The notes under the pieces are model-generated. The model ran no database searches. It worked only from the letters and a program-made list of their open reading frames with translations, and had not been told where the DNA came from. Below, piece after piece: positions 3,989 to 64,000 of a stretch of 64,000 nt of DNA. Both the position numbers and the translations under genes were made by a program. Position 1 is the first letter of the stretch. Each line of letters starts with the position of its first letter. Where the stretch lies: contig NC_081356.1 in NCBI RefSeq assembly GCF_030684315.1, positions 16,641,197 through 16,705,196 on the forward strand. Reading direction: 5' to 3'. Source of the DNA: Stegostoma tigrinum. Taxonomy: Eukaryota.

Positions 3989-4687
3989 CTACAAGTCGGC
4001 ATCCCAAGGAGCTGGAGTGGATCGGCTGGACACTGGTAAGTCTATCACTGTGACTGGGTTGGTAATGCCAGTGGGGTATCTGCTGGCGGGGTATGCTGGG
4101 CTCTTCGGGTAGTAAGTTTTGTTCGCCGGGCTCTTCATTTCCGCCAACATGCCGAAACTAAACAGCAGACTGATGCCTCCAATGACGATCACGCTACCGC
4201 CAACGAAGCCGAGGACTACGGCGTAGCCAACATTGAGGTCAGTGCCGCCCACCGTGTTGGGGATCTGCCGGAGACGGTTTGTGTACCAGGAGACCGGAAT
4301 CAGGGTCAAGATCCCTCCGATCAAAAGGATGATCCCTCCGACCCCTGCCACCTTGTAGCTGGGGATATCGGCCCAGCAGCGGACCCCGAAAGTGGAGACC
4401 AGGATCCCAGCTGCAGACACCACCAACGAGGCGATCATAAGACCTCGGGCGATGGCCAGCACCTGGTCGTTGAAGTAGGCATCGTCGGCGAGCCCGCAGG
4501 TCAGCTCCCGCACGGACTGCTTGTCCTGACAGATCTCCCAAAGCCCCTGGTGGTGTACCTCGTCCCGAGCCCCGTTGGGAATCCCGGAAACGTCCCTCCA
4601 GGCGGGGGCAACCAGGCAGGTAACAATCAGCACATAGCCAGAAGGGGCTAACACAAGCCCCAAGATCATCACCGCTGGGGTCCGCAT
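3989..4687 (-). CDS. CLDN23: Claudin-23 (single coding exon, 232 aa)
   Basis: Four hydrophobic segments; claudin ECL1 signature W..GLW..C..C (AWRD...HQGLWEICQDKQSVRELTC); N-terminus MRTPAVMILG and C-terminus PWDADL resemble CLDN23; CpG-rich intronless ORF. Confidence 0.9.
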   Translation of the reverse strand: MRTPAVMILGLVLAPSGYVLIVTCLVAPAWRDVSGIPNGARDEVHHQGLWEICQDKQSVRELTCGLADDAYFNDQVLAIARGLMIASLVVSAAGILVSTFGVRCWADIPSYKVAGVGGIILLIGGILTLIPVSWYTNRLRQIPNTVGGTDLNVGYAVVLGFVGGSVIVIGGISLLFSFGMLAEMKSPANKTYYPKSPAYPASRYPTGITNPVTVIDLPVSSRSTPAPWDADL

Positions 4688-4739
4688 CTTGTGGCAGTCA
4701 CTGTAGGACTAGTCAGCAGGAGCTGCTCACTCGTGGCTC

Positions 4740-28700: not shown

Positions 28701-30980
28701 ATGGCATAGGAAGCTGTTCAGATGGTCTTAATCTCTTTAACAAACAAATCTACTAGCTCTTTGCACATAGTCTTTGGACTGAGGCTGGAAAAGACAGAGA
28801 AGGCAACTTGCAGTCGAGAAAAGGAGCCAGATGTTAACATTGCACTCAAGATGACTCTGGAATAGTTAGCACTCTAAGAGGAGAAGATTAGGCCCAGCAG
28901 TGCTTCATGTGGTTCATGTAGATCTGGCAATAAATATCTAAACCAGTTGTCTACCACATCCATTCAAAACTGCGAGACTTGGACTTAAGAGAGTGGAGGT
29001 GAAGGCTATACTGTAGTGAATGACCAAGCAATATTTAGATTTAGGTTGTATTGTCACATGTAGTCAAGTATAGGCTACGAGAGTACAGTGAAAAGTATAT
29101 AATGTCACCACACAAAGCACCACCTTAGGAACAAAGTATCTTGTTACAAAATCTTAGTTACAGAACTAGAAAAATAAAGAAATAAGTTAAAATGTCAAAC
29201 ATTACAGTCCTTTCTTAAGCCTGTAGATGCTCCAGACTGGACTTTCCCCAAGAGGGCTCATTCTCCCACACGCTGCGCGTGATTTCACTCACACTGGGCG
29301 AAGACCCACCTGGGTGCACCAGGCTTCACCGCCGCTCGCAAGACTTCAGCCCTGACCTCTGTATTACCAATCACTGCCACTGCCACCATCCCTTATGGCT
29401 GACTGCCTCTCCTACCATGCTTCGTCACCAAGCTACTGCCACCAACTGGTATCGCGCCGTGCCCTAGCCACTCCCACGCTTTGTTGCTGCCACTGCCTCC
29501 ACAGCCTCCAAAAGGGAAGTAGGAAACACTACAAACTAAAAATAACGACTGAAAAGAGAAGAAAAACAAATGAAAGTGGGTGAAATGGATGAGATCCAGT
29601 CTCAGGCGCCCAGGCACTGCCTACTCCATGCCGCATCTTGAAACATTTCAAATTACCAGACCCGTTCATGGCTCATTCAGTCAAAAACAGGAATAAATTC
29701 ATTTACAAACACTAATGAACCTCTTAACTCATGCTGTCATAATCAGGTTCAGAGAGACTAAAGGTTTTAGTTAGGACTAAGGCAGAAACAGTGATGGTGA
29801 AAGTGCAACCACACAAATCAACAGCTGCAGAAATGTTGCGTTGAACAGAGGGCCAGCGGTAGACCGGTAGGATTTTGAAACTACCACTGTGGGTGAAATG
29901 GGAGGGAATATTTTCCTGGGGCAGATACAGAAGGAGGGTGCGTGCATGTAACTTTATCAATGAGGCAGAACAAAGTGAGAAGGTTGTGAAAATTTATGTG
30001 ATACTCAGCAATACCAATAGAAGATTGGCATTCAAAGGCAAAAGAATTATGCTAAATCTTTATGAAATGCCGTTTCGACTTGTCTGTAAGTATTGTGTTC
30101 ACTGCTGGGCACCACACCTTAGAAAGTATGTTAAAGTCTTAGTGAGTATGTGCAGGAAGGATTGACTGGAATGGTCCAAGAAATGAGGGCCTTCCATTAT
30201 GTGGTGAGTCTGGAGAGTTGTGGTTGTTCTTTAAAGAAGAATAGGATATTTAATAGAAATGTTAAAATTACTAATGGTTTTGATAGAGTAAAAAAGTAAC
30301 ATCTGTATATCGTGGTGAAAAGGTTGGGAATCAAGGCGACAGATTTAGTGCGATTAGCAAAGGACCCAGAGCAAGCATATTTTTTATATCTCCAGTTGTT
30401 GTGATCTGGAGTGCTCTTTCTGAAAGGGTCATAAGACATATTCAGCCGTAAATTCAAAAAGTTCAGCTTGAAGGAAACACCTGGCAGGATCGTGAAGAAA
30501 GAACTAAGGATTAGGTAGCTCTACCAAAAACCAAACCAAATGGCTTCATTCTCCACAGTGCCTTTCTTTGGCTGTATGGTGAGGACAGTCTAATCTTTGC
30601 ACAACCAGAGGATTGATATCTGGAATGGACTCACCAGGGTAAGGCTAAAGGCAAAAGAAAAAGAGTTAAGCAGGTGCACTTGACAAACTGTCTGGTACTA
30701 TGAAAGGATTGGGGTGGGGGGGAACGTTGAATGATCTCCTACTTCTTCAACTGTGACAGGAAATATCCAGTTGTTTTGGGGATTTTGGCCCTGAGAGTTA
30801 CACTTGTTGAGCAAAGAGCTCAATAGCCATGGGAAAATAAATCTTAAAAGCTATGCCTTCTATCTGCTGCCCACACCCAGTGCTTGAATTGTTTTAAACA
30901 GGTATACTGTTCCAGCAACTGTTGTACAAATACAAGGTAATGCTTTTATTGATACGAACTGTGCTTGTTTCTACATTCAG

Positions 30981-31959
30981 GTTCAAAATAGCGCTGTCGT
31001 CTCTGATGCTGTTAACCCAAAGAGTAACATCAACGTCATTGGACATTCATGAGGGCAAAATCAAGATCCCAGCTCAAATAATACAGCAACATCGCTTTGA
31101 CACTGAAATTCTCTCTTATTCATTCCCATTCTTCAGCTACATGATATATTTCCCTACACTGCTTGGAGGGCCTCTGTGTTCTTTTCAAATGTACAAGATT
31201 CACATGGAAAACCTTAAGAAGTCTGATCAGAAAAGCATTGCCAAACCCTTGTGGTCTTTCTTTTACAAGTGCATCCTATTTTTTGTGTTGAATATGCTGA
31301 GAGTGTCTGTAAGGAATTGTGTTAGTGTTATTAAACATAGTGACAAAAGATCCCTTCAATGGGATGTTCCTAATGATATTTTCATGATTTGGGCAACAGC
31401 TTTGATGTTCAAATTAGCATATTACTCTCAATGGCTTCTCAGTGAATCTCTTAACAATCTAGTTGGCCTGGGGTTGGAAAATGGCAGCAATCAACAGTCT
31501 GCCCTCTCAGACACTGATATCTGGACACTAGAGACAACTAATAAGATATCTGAGTTTGTTCGAGTATGGAACAAAACCACAGCTGGTTGGCTAAGGAGAA
31601 TGGTGTTTCAACGTAGCAAACTTCAGCCTTTTATATCAACATTTGCGTTTTCAGCTTGGTGGCATGGCCTTCACCCAGCCCAGGTCTTTGGATTTACCTT
31701 GTGTGCTGCCACTGTAAAAGTGGACTATCGAGTTCACCAATATATGGGCCCACTCACTGCACAGTCAAGGCTTCTAAGACTATTCTACAAAGTCATGACG
31801 TGGATGCAAACTCAACTAGTAATTGCATACATTTTAGTAGCTGTGGAGTTGAGGACCTTTTCTTGTGTGCTGGAGATGTGCAAGTCTGTCTGTGCTGTCA
31901 GCCCATTAGTGTATGTACTGATGCTAATAGGTATGCCAAACAAGCCAAGTAAAAATTAA
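30981..31959 (+). CDS. MBOAT4: Ghrelin O-acyltransferase, coding exon 3 (MBOAT catalytic region)
   Basis: Acceptor cattcag|G; LSSLMLLTQRVTS.SLDIHEG, FP.LLGGPLCSF, conserved Asn (RVWNKTT..WLRR) and catalytic His (FSAWWHGLHP). Spliced CDS is 128+225+979=1332 nt, 443 aa. Confidence 0.95.
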
Positions 31960-39870: not shown

Positions 39871-40842
39871 CTTACAGATGGTAACACCTTTTGCTCCCCA
39901 CTGTTGGACAATATTTCATGTGTACTTTGTGTGTTTAAAAGTACATATATACTTCAAATTATGTAATTTTAAAAAAATGCTAGCCATGTTTGTTTCAGCC
40001 TCATTTCTCAAAAAACTTCAGCCAATGAAATCAATTTTAATACATAGTTTGAGTTTTAGACTTAATGCCCTAAATGTGGTTTTTAAAATTGAACAACAAA
40101 CTTTGACAATATAACTAAGCACAATGTTGGCACAATCCATTTGAACTATCTCAGGAAGGGAAGTGAAATTCACCTTGGCGAGATGCTAGGCGTAGATGCC
40201 TTGCCATTGGAAGCTGTAAGCACAGACCTGCTACTCAACACAAAATGGAATGGAAGAAAAATTAGGGAAGAGATCATAGAAACTTAAAGCACAGAATGAG
40301 GCCATTCATCCTACTGTGCCTCTGTCGGCTTTTTGAATTAACTCTCCAATTTGACCTATTACCCATTTCTTTGCACATGATCCTGGAAGTGACCCCAGGT
40401 TAGACAATGATAAGCCCTTTGGCATACATCTTGAAGCAGCTTTTCTGTCCATTTTCAGTCCAAATGGAATGTAACCCATAGAGAGCAAAGGAAAATAATA
40501 TTTTTGAAAACAAAGCAAAGTACGAATCAAACTGGAAGGTATTTGGAGTGCTAATAGATTACGCAGCAGCAAAGCTTTTATTGTGTCCAGTGGTTTACTG
40601 CACTCCAAACATATTTCTCAGTCTCTGGAGGGTTCACTGCAGATTTCCTGTGTTTCTTAATGCTACTAATGAGTTTCAAAACCTGCCAAACCTTTCAAGA
40701 ATTTGCAATTAATTAACAACAGTTTCCTGGCTGGAGTTCATCATTACTCCCACCCCTCCTCTTCCTACAGGCTCAGGGCACGCATAGCACTCAGCCAAGG
40801 GTGTGCTGTAAAGGGAAAATTGAGCTTAGAAACAGAACGCCA

Positions 40843-41113
40843 ATGGGACCGTTCGACTTTCTCTCTGGAGTTTTGTTCTTCGTCTGCTTCTTGGCATCGG
40901 ATGTAACAAATTGCTATGCAGACGATCACCAGATACAGCAACCGTTCAGTAAAGCTATTTTGGAAATGTTACATATAAACACACTTACATTTCCACGACG
41001 TACCAAACTTCATCCTTACATGAGACTAATCTATCAGCAGCTCAGCTCATCGGAAACCAAGGACTCTACCACAACTGAGGGAACACTGGTGCAAAGCTTT
41101 CGCAGTATCAAAG
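40843..41113 (+). CDS. Divergent TGF-beta/BMP-superfamily ligand, coding exon 1 (signal peptide and prodomain start)
   Basis: Kozak gccaATGg; hydrophobic MGPFDFLSGVLFFVCFLASDVTNCYA; prodomain motifs ILEMLHI, HPYMRLIYQ, GTLVQSFR; donor AG|GTACAA, phase 1. Confidence 0.85.
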
Positions 41114-41709
41114 GTACAATGTATTACAAATTAATTGTTTATATAGCTTATAAGTCTCAATACTTTCATAAAACCCACTTGTTGCACTAAATTCTCACAT
41201 TGCCTTGTTATTTACTGTAAATAACTGAGCATATGTCCAGCTATATCCAAGCAAAGAAGGAAAGAGGAAACACTTGGACATTAAGCATTTATTACAAATT
41301 ACTGGGGAATTCATTTTTAAGCATAAATATAATTTTCATTGGTTGGGTGCACCATGTATTAATAAATATCCGATGGCATCCTTGGAAAATGGAAGACTAA
41401 AACATTTTTTGAAAAACACTCCAGAGTCTTACTTATGTCACATGAGAAGCAAAACTTGTCATCATCAATCTCCATAACATCGAATAATAAACACTGACTT
41501 GAAACCTCAAAGGTTTCCAAGAAACCTGACTAATATCCTACTCAAGTGTAAGAGTTTTAGTTTAATGTCTTATTCAAAATTACCTTTAATAATGCACTTT
41601 CTCTCCACACTGCATCAAAGGATTAGCATAGATTATAGAATTATTGTTCTGACTTCAGAGATAAGAATGCTACAACTGTAGTAACATCGCCAGACTGTTA
41701 GTCTAGAGA

Positions 41710-41920
41710 TAAAGAAAACTGCAGATATTGGAGAATCTGAGATAACAAAGTGTGGAGCTGGATGAACACAGCAGGCCAAGCAGCATCTTAGGAGCACAAA
41801 AGCTGACGTTTTGGGCCTAGACCCTTCATCAGAAAGGGTCTAGGCCCAAAATTTCAGCTTTTGTGCTCCTAAGATGCTGCTTGGCCTGCTGTGTTCATCC
41901 AGCTCCACACTTTGTTATCT
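41710..41920. mobile_element. Fold-back Penelope-like terminal-repeat element in intron 1 of the TGF-beta-like gene
   Basis: ~88-bp near-perfect inverted arms (41739-41826 and 41834-41921); 15-bp TSD ct(g/a)tta(g/a)tctagaga at 41695-41709 and 41921-41935. Confidence 0.85.
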
Positions 41921-41924
41921 CTAT

Positions 41925-42240
41925 TAATCTAGAGAGCCAGGTAATGTTCTGGTGACCTGGGTTCAAATCCCACCATGGGGGATAGTGTTTGAATTCATTA
42001 GGATTTGAATTCAGTAAAAATCTGGAATTAAGATTCAACATGAAAATGTTGTCGATTGTTGGAAAGATACATCTGACACAGCAATACCCTTTAAGGAAGG
42101 AAATTGCTATCTTTACCTACTCTGACCTACAAGTAACTCCAGACCCACAGCAATGGTTTTAACTGTTCTCTGGGCAATTAGGAATAGGCAATAAATGTAG
42201 GCCTAGCCAATGACTCCCACATCTTGTAAATGAATGAGAA
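41925..42240 (+). mobile_element. tRNA-derived SINE (host of the fold-back insertion)
   Basis: B-box-like gggttcaaatcccacc; tail ggcaattagg..ggcaataaatg..tgaatga. Confidence 0.65.
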
Positions 42241-42554
42241 AAAATACAGTGGGCAAATTCTCCATTATAAGTCCATACTCAAAAAACCAGAACAAAAGAA
42301 GCCAATAATCACTGTGACTGTTTCTCAACAGGCCATAATGGTAGACTAGAATATCAATCATAAAATGAAGTAGCTAAATAAGTTAAAATAGAAATGAGAA
42401 TATACGGCAATATGTCTTTGATCAAGGCACAAAAATACTTCAATCTCATGAATTTACTTTTCCCATGAATATATTAGATCTTGTTTTTCCTTTTTACAAT
42501 TGATGCACCTGAAAACTGATGGGAGGTGACTACGAAAGTAAATTCAACCAGTCA

Positions 42555-43020
42555 TAGGGAGGATATTATTAAACTGGAGAGGGTTCAGAAGAGTTTTACC
42601 AGGATTTTGCCAGGTATGAAAGGTTTAAGATATAAAGAAAGGTTGGATAGGCTGAGACCTTTCACTGTAGCGTAGAAGGTTGAGAGTTGAACTTATAGAC
42701 ATTTATAAAATTATGAGGGGTATAGGTAGGGTTAATGGTAGGTGTCTTTTCCCTAGGATGGGGGATTTCAAGACTAGGGGGCGTATTTTTCAAGGAGGAG
42801 GAGAGAGATTTATAAAAGACATGAGAGGCAATTTTTTTTTACAGAGGGCTGTTCACATGTGGAATGAACATCCTGAGTAAGTGGTAGATTTGGGCATGAT
42901 AGGAAAGATTTGGAGGGAAATGGGCCAGGAGCGGTTAGGTGGGGTTAGTTTAGATTGTGATTATGTTCGGCATGGACTGGTTGGGCCAAAGGGTCTGCTC
43001 CCACGCTGTATGACTCTATA
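42555..43020 (+). mobile_element. CR1 LINE 3' fragment
   Basis: LERVQKSFTR, ELIDIYKIMRGIGRV, FFLQRAVHMWNE. Confidence 0.85.
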
Positions 43021-43205
43021 AATACAAACATTCCCTTGTTAAACCTAAAACAGCAATTACTTCAATTTAAATAGCACCTGCAATGTCCTGCCCAACATTA
43101 GATCTGGTTGGAAAATGGAAATGTAGCAAAAGAAAATCTTTTTTATGGGAATTTATTACTCCTCATGCTGAAAGATTCAACTAATTTTGCTTACGTTTAC
43201 TTCAG

Positions 43206-43797
43206 TTCCTGAATATGACAATCCAGGATGGGTATGGTTTAACATTTCCAAGCTCAAGCCCTCCATGGTGGCAGCAGAGTTGGTGCTACTGCGAAGAACT
43301 CTCCATCCAAAGTCACTGACGGTTAATGTAACAGTACATCATATCAGTTTGGAAGGGAACAACCTCACCATCAGCGATCCACTGGACAAAAAGATTTTGA
43401 ATCTGAGTGAGCTGCCATTCTCTGGATATGACACATTCAATGTTTCCACCATCCTGAAACACTGGACGTTGGATGTGATAGGATTTCAGTTCCAGTTTAC
43501 TGATGACAGTGGCAGTCTGGTATTACACGATGCTCTGACTCAAAGCCTCTACTGCCTCGACACAAACTCTCAGGATGAGCCACTGCTCGTCGCCTACAGG
43601 CTGGCACTGTCAGGAAGGAGGAAGGCAGGAAAACCACTCAGCAGCAGAAACAGCCAGCGGAGCTCTAGGGAAGTGAGGTGGAAATTCCCACCTATTTCTG
43701 GGAAGTGCAGCATGCATCCACTTTATGTGAACTTACAGTCATTGAAGTTAAGTAACTGGATCTTGGAACCACGGGGTTTCTACGCTAATGCCTGTAG
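43206..43797 (+). CDS. Divergent TGF-beta/BMP-superfamily ligand, coding exon 2 (prodomain, RXXR sites, start of mature domain)
   Basis: Acceptor acttcag|TT; WVWFNIS..AAELVL, FNVS.IL, EPLLVAY prodomain motifs; RSSR/REVR at 43658-43678; CSMHPLYVNL..NWILEPRGFYANAC; donor AG|GTAAGT. Confidence 0.9.
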
Positions 43798-44471
43798 GTA
43801 AGTCCTAAATCAGTACTGACTCTGGTTTGATCCGAGCTGGCATTGTAAGTGGCAGTAAAGAAGTTTTCAGCTGTGTCTTTTCTCCCTCATTGCCCTGCAT
43901 TCCACTCTCCCTTCTATTACTATTCCTACTCACCACCCATCATTTTGAAATATAAAAAGTTATTGTCTGTGATCTTGTTCACATTCTGCATGTTTTTATT
44001 ATCTTTTATAGATATAGGGAGCAATTGCAGCAAATTTGTGCCATGAATAGATAAAAGGAAAGCCAGATAATCAATTTCAGTGATGATTGATGTGGAATAC
44101 GTACACTTTTCAACTGAATTCTCAAAGGATTTCAACCTAGCAGAGAGGTCAGATGGGGACACAGGTTTCATAGCTGATTTAACGCATGTCGTTACTCCTT
44201 CAGTCCTGCATTGTCATCCTAAGATTATGTGCTCAAGTCCCTCTTGTGAGATTGATCCCAGAACCTTCACCTGAAGGCTGGAGTGCCACTGCTAAGAAAC
44301 CACTCTTAAAAAACAGTGGACACATATCTAAATCCAGTTTCAGTGCAATAAGTAAATCTGCATGATTGAAATGCATATTTGAAAACTGCCGCATCTTCTT
44401 TAATGATCCGTGCACATCAAGTAGAATGATTTATATTGTGGCTAAATCTGCATTTTGTATTGCTTTCTTAG

Positions 44472-44567
44472 AGGTCATTGCTCTGACTCAATCACTGGCA
44501 AGGGGAATACAGACACAATAAGTCCTGCATCAGGAACAGTGAAGCAAAACATAACGAAAAATCAAAG
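44472..44567 (+). CDS. Divergent TGF-beta/BMP-superfamily ligand, coding exon 3 (96 bp)
   Basis: Acceptor tttcttag|A completes C-R-G-H-C (CXGXC); encodes GHCSDSITGKGNTDTISPASGTVKQNITKNQ; donor AG|GTAAGT. Not in the ORF track. Confidence 0.85.
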
Positions 44568-44647
44568 GTAAGTTCTGCATTTAGTTTTAGTCTCACTTTT
44601 TAAAAAAAAATGAAAATCCATTACTTACCCCATTTCTTTTCCCATAG

Positions 44648-44765
44648 GTGGCACTGTACCCCAGAAGAATATTCTTCAGTTAGTTTAATGCACGTAACAG
44701 AGTCTGGAGATATTTTTATTGAGAGGATAAAAGAGATGAGTATTGAGAGTTGCACATGCAAATAA
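44648..44765 (+). CDS. Divergent TGF-beta/BMP-superfamily ligand, coding exon 4 (terminal)
   Basis: Acceptor ttttcccatag|G after an 80-bp intron; WHCTPEEYSSVSLMHVTESGDIFIERIKEMSIESCTCK*, ending in the family's CXCX-stop. Spliced CDS is 1077 nt, 358 aa. Confidence 0.88.
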
Positions 44766-46392
44766 GATTTAATTCAGAGTGGAAATGCCTAATGTTCCCT
44801 ACATTATCCAAAATCTGTGTTTTCACATTTCAGACACAAGTCACAACACAAGAAATGCTATAGGATTAACCCATGGATAGACTTGGCACAATACTCATAC
44901 TATTTACATTATACCTTTCTAAGTGAGCACTTAACCCACTTAAAGAGGTTCAACTGAATAACTCTCCACGTGGGTGTGGTATATAAACTGCTTATAAGTG
45001 TGCTCGCTCATCCTGTACATAAGGCTCCTCAAGGCCTTAAGCACAGTAGCATTCTTTTATTCACATCTGTACATAGTGGGTTATCACACACAGGTCTCTA
45101 ACATGGTTTCCAGCACCTCTCTCTGCACATACTCATTTCAGACTGGTGTCTTTCATACAAAAAGTTATATGATCAATTGCATGTTTCCAATTACATTGCA
45201 GTTGCTTATTCCAAAGATTTGCTGATTTCGAGTGAGGTTTTTTCTTGAGCAGAATTTTATGTTCCCCTGTTGGTGGGTTTGAAGGCAGGCGACAAACAAA
45301 TCAAACGGTTTTTGGTCTCCATTCCATCTGGAATTTTAAGGAGATGCAAGAGTCGTCAGGTAACCTACTTGAACTTGGGCCTGTCAAGCCTCTTGGGAGG
45401 TGGAGGGGAGGAGAGCGAGATGGTATATCTCCTTTATAGGTCTTCTAGGCCCATCGGAACGACTCCTCCATGGACCACTTTTCTTTAACACTACCCCACC
45501 CCCAGACCTCAAATCCAGCCACTCATTCCCCTCGCTGAGACCTTCACCCAACAACATACCTCGGCTCATTAATATTGGAGAGTGCCTGTTATGGCAACAG
45601 TAACCACTAGTCTCAGTAGAACAGCTGGATTTTACTGAGCCACTGGTCACCTGATGAGTCAACAGCTTACTAAGGTAGAATTTCTTCCCATGACAGGGGT
45701 GGAGGTCTCACTTCTAAGCAATTAACACTGCTCACAGCACAGCACCCCCATAAAATTCAGCACCTTTTAACTTGCAATTTGATTTATCCCTTCAAATTAA
45801 TACAGCACTTGGCATTCCAAGGCTAGAGAATACTCCTTCGCTCTGTCTTTCCTCCCTCCTGCGTTCTGCAGACTTCTACACTTAAACAATTCTTGATGAA
45901 GTTAATCTTCTCTTAAGTTTTTATGGAAGATTACGCTCAACATATGCTATGAATTTCCCCACTACCTGGCATTCTCAAATAAAACTGTGATATTACATAT
46001 CATTCGTAATTAGAAAGCATTCTTCCCAATTTCATCTATTTCAACTTCCCAAGGGATGTTAGATAGGTTGTACACCTGCCATGCACTCAATTTACAATCT
46101 ACTCAATTTTCACAATGCAATTTCCCTACATTGTATTCAATGTATTATTTTTGTTATTATGAAGTGTATCTTAATCAACCTTTCTGTATAATTGGGCACA
46201 ATTGTTCTCAAATTGTGAAGTTTAATGAGTTTCACAATGCAAGGAAGACCTTAATTCTGTAATACTTTAACATTTCATGGCTACTGTGTTTATTGAACTA
46301 GGTAACACCCTCACCATAAGGCATTACTAACACCACGTAATGTTATTGTAATCAGTCATTAACTGATAGTGTGAGTGAACTGTACTCAATTC

Positions 46393-46415
46393 AATAAAGG
46401 CTTTCTTTTAATAAA
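46393..46415 (+). terminator. Candidate polyadenylation signals for the TGF-beta-like gene
   Basis: Two AATAAA (46393, 46410) in AT-rich sequence; another at 45978. Confidence 0.4.
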
Positions 46416-48955: not shown

Positions 48956-49019
48956 AATGCATCTCAGCACATATCCTGAAGTCTGCCCATTGTGGACACA
49001 GGGTGAGTTGACATGGTAG

Positions 49020-50261
49020 CAGCGCATCTGCTCCCACGATGAGGCATTCCACTCCCGCACATCCCAGATGTCCAAGTTCTACAAGGACCGCAACTCCACC
49101 CCCCCCAAACAGTGGTCGAGAACGCCCTTGACCGCGTCTCCCGCATTTCCCGCAACACATCCCTCACACCCCGCCCCCGCCACAACCGCCCAAAGAGGAT
49201 CCCCCTCGTTCTCACACACCACCCCACCAACCTCCGGATACAACGCGTCATCCTCCGACACTTCCGCCATCTACAATCCGACCCCACCACCCAAGACATT
49301 TTTCCATCCCCACCCGTCTGCTTTCCGAACAGACCACTCTCTCCGTGACTCCCTTGTTCGCTCCACACTGCCCTCCAACCCCACCACACCCAGCACCTTC
49401 TCCTGCAACCGCAGGAAATGCTACACTTGCCCCCACACCTCCTCCCTCACCCCTATCCCAGGCCCCAAGATGACTTTCCACATTAAGCAGAGGTTCACCT
49501 GCACATCTGCCAATGTGGTATACTGCATCCACTATACCCGGTGTGGCTTCCTCTACATTGGGGAAACCAAGCAGAGGCTTGGGGACCGCTTTGCAGAACA
49601 CCTCCGCTCGGTTCGCAATAAACAACTGCACCTCCCAGTGGCAAACCATTTCCACTCCCCCTCCATTCTTTAGACGACATGTCCATCATGGGCCTCCTGC
49701 AATGCCACAATGATGCCACCCGAAGGTTGCAGGAACAGCAACTCATATTCCGCTTGGAACCCTGCAGCCCAATGGTATCAATGTGGACTTCACCAGCTTC
49801 AAAATCTCCCCTTCCCCCACCGCATCCCAAAACCAGTCCAGTTCGTCCCCTCCCCCCACTGCACCACACAACCAGCCCAGCTCTTCCCCTCCACCCACTG
49901 CATCCCAAAACCAGTCCAACCTGTCTCTGCCTCCCTCACCTGTTCTTCCTCTCACCCATCCCTTCCTCCCACCCCAAGCCGCACCTCCATCTCCTACCTA
50001 CTAACCTCATCCCACCTCCTTGACCTGTCCGTCTTCCCTGGACTGACCTATCCCCTCACTACCTCCCCACCTATACTCTCCTCTCCACCTATCTTCTTTA
50101 CTCTCCATCTTCGGTCCGCCTCCCCCTCTCTCCCTATTTATTCCAGAACCCTCTCCCCATCCCCCTCTCTGATGAAGGGTCTAGGCCCGAAACGTCAGCT
50201 TTTGTGCTCCTGAGATGCTGCTGGGCCTGCTGTGTTCATCCAGCCTCACATTTCATTATCT
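49020..50261 (+). mobile_element. Young 5'-truncated Penelope-like retroelement (thumb/linker, GIY-YIG endonuclease, pseudo-LTR with hammerhead core) with 16-bp TSD
   Basis: RIPLVLTHHP, CNRRKCYTC, FTCTSANVVYCI..CGFLYIGETKQRLGDRFAEH, VANHF; tgagttgacatggtag at 49004-49019 and 50262-50277. Confidence 0.93.
50165..50200 (+). ncRNA. Minimal type-I hammerhead ribozyme-like motif (Penelope-associated)
   Basis: CTGATGA (50169-50175), A, stem II GGGT-ctag-GCCC, GAAA, palindromic ACGT, GTC triplet (predicted cleavage after 50196). Local stem I is only 2 bp. Confidence 0.6.
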
Positions 50262-63207: not shown

Positions 63208-64000
63208 CTTTGGAGGCAAGTTAATTATGACAATGTAGAAACTGCAACAATTTTTTTGTAATCTAGATATTGATATGTTTACTGAAACTATCAAGCTGTT
63301 TTATTGCACTATACCTCACTGTATTTTGTCCTTAAATTTACATTGTGCAGGATATCACAAAACATTCTGAATATATGCTACTTGTATTTATGTTCCCTAC
63401 TAGAATGAAGCTCCACAGTACCAAGTTGCATCAGTAACATCAGCAAGCTGATTTTTCTTCAGATGTGGGCTTAGGCAAGGTCACAAAATTTAACTGAAAA
63501 ATGAGCGGGGACAAAAAAGTAACTGACAGAAAAGCAGGCAGAAAGATCACAGATAAGTTTCGATAATATACATTATTGTCCAATTTTAAAATGTGTGCTT
63601 TCCAGCCAACGGCCACTGAACATAAATTAGATTTGGTCACAGTATTGCCTTTTTTTTTTCTAAGGCAAAGAGATAATTTCTACAGCTATTGTAGCAGAGA
63701 ATATCTAACATAACCACACCCAAAGTAGAATCTTCAAGAATTTACTTCTAGTTCTATTTATTGTATCTGAAATATTTTCCATTTCATTCATCTAATTATT
63801 CCCCACATACGGCAATCCACAGAAAGAACTGACAAAACAAAAATCCCAACATATCTGTCAATGCATTTCTTGCCAATAATTGAACTCAGCCAGGTAAGAA
63901 TGCAAGTGTTTTAGGCTGATTTGCTCAGCGAAATAGTTTCTTTTTAAAACATTCTACACACGTGTTTTTTGTGCAACATTACAAATGTACTCACTGGGGT

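Follow-up and report, generated by a model that had tools for sequence, protein, structure and literature searches.

The 64-kb window of the zebra shark genome (Stegostoma tigrinum, contig NC_081356.1) analysed here, i.e., the whole stretch of 64,000 nucleotides, contains at positions 40843 to 44765 of the forward strand a four-exon gene for a precursor protein of the TGF-beta type, which is real, transcribed and present as a single copy. Judged by sequence comparison, the encoded protein represents an unnamed subfamily of its own within the TGF-beta/BMP superfamily and does not belong to the BMP2/4/16 group, under whose name it is filed. In our alignments, the prodomain of this family is more conserved than its ligand domain, which is the opposite of the situation in the BMP6 and GDF7 controls. 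We give an even chance to the reading that the protein is a secreted modulator acting via its prodomain on another member of the superfamily, probably as a damper and not as an ordinary agonist.

The four exons (40843–41113, 43206–43797, 44472–44567 and 44648–44765) are flanked by GT donors and AG acceptors throughout and join to an open reading frame (ORF) of 1077 nt with its sole stop codon at the end, while the other two frames contain 23 and 19 stops. The product of 358 aa and the intron phases of 1, 2 and 2 agree exactly with a preliminary description of this DNA, and all three splice junctions proposed there are crossed by publicly available contigs. X15 record 13 and X16 record 18, contigs from two public runs, cross all four exons with 0 mismatches, the X14 contigs cross junctions 2 and 3, and the X1 contigs, which carry a different organism code and are about 97% alike, cross junctions 1 and 2; X14 to X16 stem from one study and X1 from another, and the runs bear no RNA label. 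The search of the zebra shark genome yielded a single match among 20 candidates, representing one intron-containing copy, and no second copy or ohnologue was found among these candidates. Because the genome holds only this intron-containing copy, the intron-less contigs are most simply read as spliced mRNA. The protein is identical (0 differences in 358 residues) to XP_048383659.1, the RefSeq entry for "bone morphogenetic protein 2" of S. tigrinum, so the gene does carry an annotation. Its model is already known to annotation pipelines; its identity is not.

The Pfam TGF_beta profile matched exon 4 (E 5e-7) and the last 42 codons of exon 2 (E 2.5e-6), TGFb_propeptide gave a weak match on exon 2 under the cut-off (E 0.013), and exons 1 and 3 taken singly showed no Pfam match. 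The 3′ untranslated region (UTR) probably reaches about 46350–46410, as X15 record 13 has 946 more letters beyond 45400; AATAAA motifs lie at 46393 and 46410. The layout of signal peptide, prodomain, furin sites and cystine knot was found as previously described, the signal peptide being judged from hydropathy only, and comprises the following features:

40803..41113, forward strand: exon 1, with a short 5′ UTR, the ATG at 40843, the signal peptide and the N-terminal prodomain helices (from translation and contigs starting at 40803–40823)
40843..40920, forward strand: likely signal peptide, residues 1–26, with a guessed cleavage site (hydropathy of 2.7 over 11 residues from residue 7)
40951..43600, forward strand: prodomain core, residues 37–222, interrupted by intron 1 and the best conserved region of the whole protein (from alignment and Foldseek)
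43206..43797, forward strand: exon 2, encoding the prodomain arm, the linker, the furin sites and the cystine knot's first half (from translation, Pfam and contigs)
43553..43555, forward strand: Cys207, a conserved cysteine and the only one after the signal peptide in the zebra shark prodomain (from alignment)
43619..43621, forward strand: codon 229, the position aligned with the stop of the acanthomorph fish proteins, inside exon 2 (from alignment)
43658..43678, forward strand: overlapping minimal furin sites RSSR/REVR, residues 242–248 (from translation)
43679..44762, forward strand: mature domain of 110 aa, W249–K358, split by introns 2 and 3 (from translation and alignment)
44472..44567, forward strand: exon 3, coinciding almost precisely with the wrist/heel segment, which is not conserved and has no predicted helix (from alignment and structure model)
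44648..45400, forward strand: exon 4, with the second finger, the stop codon at 44763–44765 and a 3′ UTR to at least 45400 (from contigs)
44652..44654, forward strand: His322, replacing the interchain cysteine (Cys78 of BMP2; from alignment)

A profile search scoring 8000 candidates resulted in 149 matches, of which the best 120 are covered by all orthologue counts given below. They come from sharks, rays, chimaera, coelacanth, turtles, bichir, sturgeons, gar and teleosts, with turtles as the only tetrapods. No mammal, bird, crocodile, squamate or amphibian was present among these 120 annotated proteins, and on this basis the orthologue is likely absent from these groups, which for the mammals agrees with the loss suggested previously. 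A HMMER search without filter in 1.84 billion representatives gave 30 matches at E 1e-30 or better, and all 37 further family members or fragments checked from the HMMER list had their best match in ray-finned fish, one of them weakly (47%). One sequence labelled "Mustela putorius furo" in the nr database is also labelled tilapia (P0412), which we took as a database mislabel.

To place the family, the orthologues were compared with the paralogues of the zebra shark, taken from 51 Pfam TGF_beta matches in its genome (30 as loci, the rest as regions). We presume the identities of these paralogues from their motifs, and the labels agree with the tree positions of named BMP5, BMP6, BMP8, GDF7 and Nodal-related proteins. 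The orthologues formed a clade with support values of 100/96 in the tree of mature domains and 100/100 after including the prodomain, branched roughly in the order of the species tree and stayed outside every named subfamily in three free trees. Judged from these free trees, they did not nest in BMP5-8, GDF5/6/7, BMP9/10, ADMP, Nodal, GDF1/3, BMP3/GDF10, activin/inhibin, GDF8/11 or TGFB, nor in AMH or INHA in the mature-only tree, the one including these two; shark GDF15 stood apart in all trees. Five near-duplicates were omitted from the mature-only tree, eight rows from one of the two trees with prodomains (99/96, see below) and GDNF-family loci from all, the TGFB and GDF8/11 rows contained only a minor part of the prodomain, like the Lefty rows in the other prodomain-containing tree (99/94), and no GSDF was present in any tree. 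Neither GSDF nor INHBC/E was recognised among the 51 TGF_beta matches, a search which scored top candidates only. The position outside the named subfamilies claimed in the preliminary description thus stands, and its exclusion list holds insofar as the family nests in no group tested, while a sister relation to GDF9/BMP15 or Lefty was not rejected (see below) and GSDF lies outside the trees.

That the gene is a fast-evolving copy of the BMP2/4/16 group, as suggested by the RefSeq and UniRef names of many orthologues and by BMP6 and BMP2 as best solved-structure matches, is very improbable. Forcing such a clade was rejected by the approximately unbiased (AU) test (p 0.0015), and the database names of the orthologues vary at random between BMP2, BMP4, BMP7, GDF5, GDF6, DVR-1, dbl-1 and "uncharacterized". 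The zebra shark genome contains separate BMP2, BMP4 and BMP16 loci with uninterrupted knots, and our family also differs in exon structure and species range and by lacking Cys78 and the wrist helix. Bmp16, itself a "cryptic" gene model, resembles the family in being missing from mammals and mislabelled by pipelines, but the parts of the source used here report it as absent from turtles and not found in ray or chimaera (PMC6395752), where our gene occurs.

Both trees including prodomains united the vertebrate clade with orphan ligands of amphioxus (Branchiostoma XP_066297780.1), acorn worm (Glandiceps XP_077981864.1), brachiopod (Lingula XP_013394129.1) and annelid (Ridgeia KAK2178947.1) together with unnamed records, with support values of 99/94, for which the bootstrap was not fully settled, and 99/96. 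The profile of the family prodomain ranked five amphioxus sequences as the top 5 of 206 non-family prodomains (36–42 bits; next 26), and family members filled the first 12 of 224 non-self places with the amphioxus prodomain profile. The amphioxus protein gave its sole prodomain-confined match in the zebra shark genome to exon 2 of this gene, and is a reciprocal best match on the prodomain alone. Moreover, the interchain position is occupied by His in Glandiceps, Lingula, Ridgeia and the zebra shark. The invertebrate orphans differ from our family in keeping W28 (BMP2 numbering) and the helix-3 motif, and amphioxus also retains the interchain cysteine; no functional characterisation of these ligands was found in the literature searched. 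The subfamily is probably older than the jawed vertebrates and probably predates the vertebrates, so the earlier designation as an uncharacterised jawed-vertebrate ligand describes the orthologue clade correctly and its age presumably not. Long branches meet in the shared orphan clade, according to a warning of the tree tool, which argues against it. The invertebrate orphans as a clade of their own without our family were not rejected (p 0.37), so the orphan clade may be ordered in more than one way. In the mature-only tree, the neighbour of the vertebrate clade was an unnamed long branch close to the root of TGFB (P0227), a placement which we read as long-branch attraction because P0227 moved away when prodomains were added.

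The distribution of conservation along the precursor is inverted compared to the controls. The mean pairwise identity was 74% and 69% in the prodomain blocks vs. 54% in the ligand fingers, and the zebra shark protein shared 66% of its prodomain and 41% of its mature domain with the coelacanth and also with the turtle orthologue, 60% and 37% with gar, and 55% and 37% with the zebrafish relative. The controls were reversed, with 35% and 85% for shark and dog GDF7 and 70% and 91% for coelacanth and bear BMP6, values which were obtained by local alignment and are not strictly like for like. The best prodomain matches by Foldseek were pro-TGF-beta1, pro-myostatin and pro-activin. The column of Cys207 contained cysteine in 45 of 46 long, i.e., full-length, rows and in 49 of 57 rows without a knot. 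A second cysteine in the linker occurs in 38 of 49 orthologues and is missing in carpet sharks and two aligned ground sharks, which have RSSR or a similar site there (43658–43669), so Cys207 is unpaired in these species.

The mature domain keeps the six knot cysteines (258, 287, 291, 323, 355 and 357) and reaches Foldseek TM-scores of about 0.7 against BMP2 and BMP6 chains, normalised by target. Its length of 110 aa and the overlapping cleavage sites are as previously described, and an RxxR motif lies within 45 aa ahead of the first knot cysteine in 40 of 49 complete orthologues. A cysteine at the interchain column was absent from all 46 full-length rows. The wrist segment encoded by exon 3 shows a mean identity of 20% and a spacer of 15–33 aa, and the structure model contains no helix between residues 289 and 322, where pLDDT (predicted local distance difference test) values are about 56–63. 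Among 49 complete mature domains, W28 of BMP2 is replaced by L in 47 and retained in none, F49, P50 and L51 do not rank among the six most frequent residues of their columns, no domain has a Y at Y103, and the helix-3 motif occurs once. The knuckle side appears constrained, with P35 in 49 of 49, L90 as M in 48 and L100 as I in 48. We take W28, F49, P50 and Y103 to belong to the type I receptor epitope and P35, L90 and L100 to the knuckle epitope. The available part of PMC4564238 describes L51 as required for type I receptor binding. The term "ligand" used previously fits the TGF-beta layout, yet it may mislead, given the loss of interchain cysteine and type I epitope and the occurrence of the prodomain alone in acanthomorphs (see below).

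One alternative, which we regard as doubtful, is that the protein is nevertheless a true agonist, acting in homodimers held together without a covalent bond or in heterodimers whose other subunit supplies the type I site. It would then possibly stand as a remote sister to GDF9/BMP15 and act in the gonads, and the short form of acanthomorphs would be a derived remnant chaperoning its partner. The model for this is provided by GDF9/BMP15 or GDF3, which signal as non-covalent dimers or heterodimers. The interchain cysteine is missing in our family as in Lefty, GDF3 and GDF9/BMP15 (PMC4564238, in the part used), and the furin sites and the knuckle surface are retained. GDF9/BMP15 share the precursor layout and the six knot cysteines and were placed next to the orphan group in one full-length tree (78/87) and adjacent to it at the base of the other, which is unrooted. 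They were not joined to our orthologue clade in any of the three free trees, but forcing one clade with them was not rejected (p 0.133). On the other hand, uniting the invertebrate orphans with GDF9/BMP15 to the exclusion of our family was rejected (p 0.020), and GDF9/BMP15 keep the helix motif as well as W28, L51 and Y103, as seen in shark GDF9, three residues which are all lost in our family. Their prodomains score unremarkably on the family profile, outside the top 25 of 206, they occupy separate loci in the zebra shark genome, and their knot is encoded on one exon, whereas that of our gene is split by two introns.

A second alternative would be a Lefty-like antagonist, whose monomeric mature domain occupies type II receptors or a co-receptor without recruiting a type I receptor, the prodomain having taken over later or acquired a task of its own; we consider this improbable. 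The Lefty features used here were partly read from shark Lefty exons and partly presumed. Our family shares with shark Lefty the missing interchain cysteine, the lost wrist motif, E at the position of BMP2 A34 (E or Q in 47 of 49) and M at L90, and an antagonist logic may be common to both. A clade with full-length Lefty was borderline in the AU test (p 0.053; 0.17 with the mature domain alone), although neither free full-length tree joined the two. The zebra shark protein lacks the extra N-terminal cysteine pair, the shorter wrist spacer and the C-terminal tail of Lefty, and the family prodomain profile gave no match below E 1 to the exons of shark Lefty, while a generic prodomain profile does find them. 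A Lefty-like role would also leave the prodomain as the most conserved part unexplained. Furthermore, the zebra shark has its own Lefty pair on another contig, consistent with the pair of this kind described in the part of PMC12344233 used. The two genes (L046/L047 and L060/L063; contig C4:10.63–10.71 Mb) are divergently oriented, and their knots are nearly identical while their third exons differ more, as gene conversion predicts.

Spiny-rayed fishes differ from this precursor layout. The 120 matches listed fall into 49 with the knot motif, 52 that stop at most 20 aa beyond the final strand of the prodomain, and 19 models that are partial or odd. Acanthomorph names are borne by each of the 52 short models and by none of the 49 knot-bearing ones. 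The short models, of about 233 aa, come from beardfish, spinyfin, squirrelfish, opah and percomorphs, and 49 of them share one end point, 7 residues past the EPLLVxY motif. Because this position falls within exon 2 of the zebra shark gene, a missed downstream exon is argued against, and a lineage-specific intron is possible. ORFs on raw cichlid-like Logan contigs stop where the annotated cichlid models stop. A hydrophobic, signal-like N-terminus is kept in 35 of 37 short forms tested, the short forms are 52–53% identical to the zebra shark prodomain, and the cysteine matching Cys207 is usually kept. Longer tails, again lacking a knot, occur in two alternative models from acanthomorphs. Smelt, pike and salmonids retain the knot, and therefore its loss maps between these and the acanthomorph root. 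Based on these protein models, the acanthomorph orthologue appears to keep the prodomain alone. The knot is likewise missing, and the tail longer, in a record labelled Lepidogalaxias; this could be a second loss or a labelling problem.

Since spiny-rayed fishes appear to keep only this part, the prodomain is suggested as the working half of the protein. The modulator reading builds on the architecture observed (signal-like N-terminus, TGF-beta prodomain fold, furin sites and six-cysteine knot without interchain cysteine), on the lost wrist residues, and on the inverted conservation and the truncated acanthomorph models. The precursor would be secreted and cleaved, its knot would neither form a stable homodimer nor recruit type I receptors, and the activity under selection would reside in the prodomain. 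The latter may associate with the precursor of a BMP/GDF while this is being synthesised or enclose the mature dimer of a BMP/GDF extracellularly, and thereby limit its secretion, range or receptor access. Cys207 could connect a pair of prodomains or anchor the protein to a different one, in analogy to the prodomain cysteines of TGF-beta1. A complex prediction with two prodomain copies (residues 30–226), in which the alignment was unused, returned a score of 0.00 without a verdict and was counted neither way. With slightly less confidence, we extend this reading to an ancient bilaterian TGF-beta branch, in whose vertebrate member the function would have moved from the growth factor to the prodomain. 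This member would have disappeared several times among the tetrapods and, in acanthomorphs (the group of medaka, tilapia and stickleback), would act as a free-standing secreted prodomain controlling another BMP/GDF in trans.

Several points weigh against a modulator of this kind. The knot cysteines and finger residues are conserved from sharks to smelt and turtles, and therefore the mature domain is constrained wherever it is retained; this conservation may reflect folding rather than receptor binding. The mean pLDDT of the structure model is middling (64.7, and 46.6 with a shallower alignment), and the tree of mature domains alone parts the vertebrate clade from the invertebrate orphans. A shared annotation artefact behind the acanthomorph truncation, which was read from protein models, is unlikely. 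Finally, conservation of a prodomain may serve a role that has nothing to do with the binding of other ligands. A third alternative, according to which the prodomain itself works as a ligand or a matrix component on a target beyond the TGF-beta pathway, seems slightly less probable to us than the Lefty-like antagonist. It would resemble Drosophila Anachronism, which has been described in this way, and is consistent with the constraint on the short form (78–84% mean identity across acanthomorphs in the knot-less rows). In addition, the Atlas cluster "protein anachronism" (TGFb_propeptide in 56% of its members) is the third-nearest by features to the short form (0.94), but this score mirrors the common propeptide family and not kinship. 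No statement of a link between Anachronism and the prodomain was found in the literature searched, and the short form has no known target.

We found no description of the gene in open-access papers and bioRxiv, subscription journals being outside this coverage, and consider an earlier mention in the literature unlikely. The main text of an inventory of TGF-beta ligands in 24 species, as far as used here, does not name such a group (PMC5979292). GSDF is likewise a divergent TGF-beta member of fishes and absent from mammals, but is reported absent from amniotes in the available part of PMC8292791, whereas our gene occurs in turtles. Panda, Maverick and GDF15 differ by a nine-cysteine ligand domain, according to the part of PMC4564238 consulted, compared to six cysteines here. 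The list of vertebrate TGF-beta ligands is treated as essentially complete, and an extra subfamily hidden under the name BMP2 would correct the annotation of numerous genomes of fishes, sharks and turtles, along with any study relying on those names. Independent functions of TGF-beta prodomains are an open question usually probed with engineered fragments. Evolution appears to have run this experiment itself, with the full-length protein in the Danio lineage and the prodomain alone in the medaka and cichlid lineages, and if the modulator reading is true, the latter would represent a natural prodomain-only regulator in vertebrates.

Within the window, the gene is accompanied by a claudin ORF (3989–4708, reverse strand) and an MBOAT ORF (30898–31959, forward strand), and TTC39-family exons follow on the minus strand just beyond base 64000 (contig C3:16705198–16744105). 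These neighbours are presumably CLDN23, MBOAT4 and TTC39B, names which are meant at the family level here, the zebra shark genome having four TTC39 loci. The MBOAT and TTC39 neighbours described earlier were thus recovered, their exact paralogue names staying at that level. Exons of a transmembrane gene with YWTD repeats and EGF domains (L057–L059), labelled by eye and possibly an EGF or LRP paralogue, lie upstream of the claudin gene, about 11–36 kb ahead of the window. Fragments of high-copy repeats, which we take to be SINE/LINE (short and long interspersed nuclear elements) and Penelope-like, occupy 41717–41975 and 42560–43000 in intron 1 and 49000–50200 downstream and are densely covered in four runs.

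Some other loci of the superfamily deserve mention. A fourth TGFB paralogue (L044, contig C54:6416317–6417656) grouped with TGFB2 and matches the TGFB2 duplicate reported for the elephant shark in the part of PMC5979292 used. Half a knot resembling ADMP (L038/L067, C3:85017195–85017365) lies on the same contig as our gene and looks like a pseudogene remnant, with neither a prodomain exon nor a second knot half found nearby. A second ADMP-like gene (L066/L020, contig C49 near 10,866,000) has its prodomain exons and a knot spread across two reading frames, as a frameshift, an indel in the assembly or a very short intron would explain. Finally, a GDF1/3-like exon occurs in two inverted copies 12 kb apart (L002 and L003, contig C14:77219067 and 77230746) with identical translations, representing a recent duplication, gene conversion or an assembly artefact.

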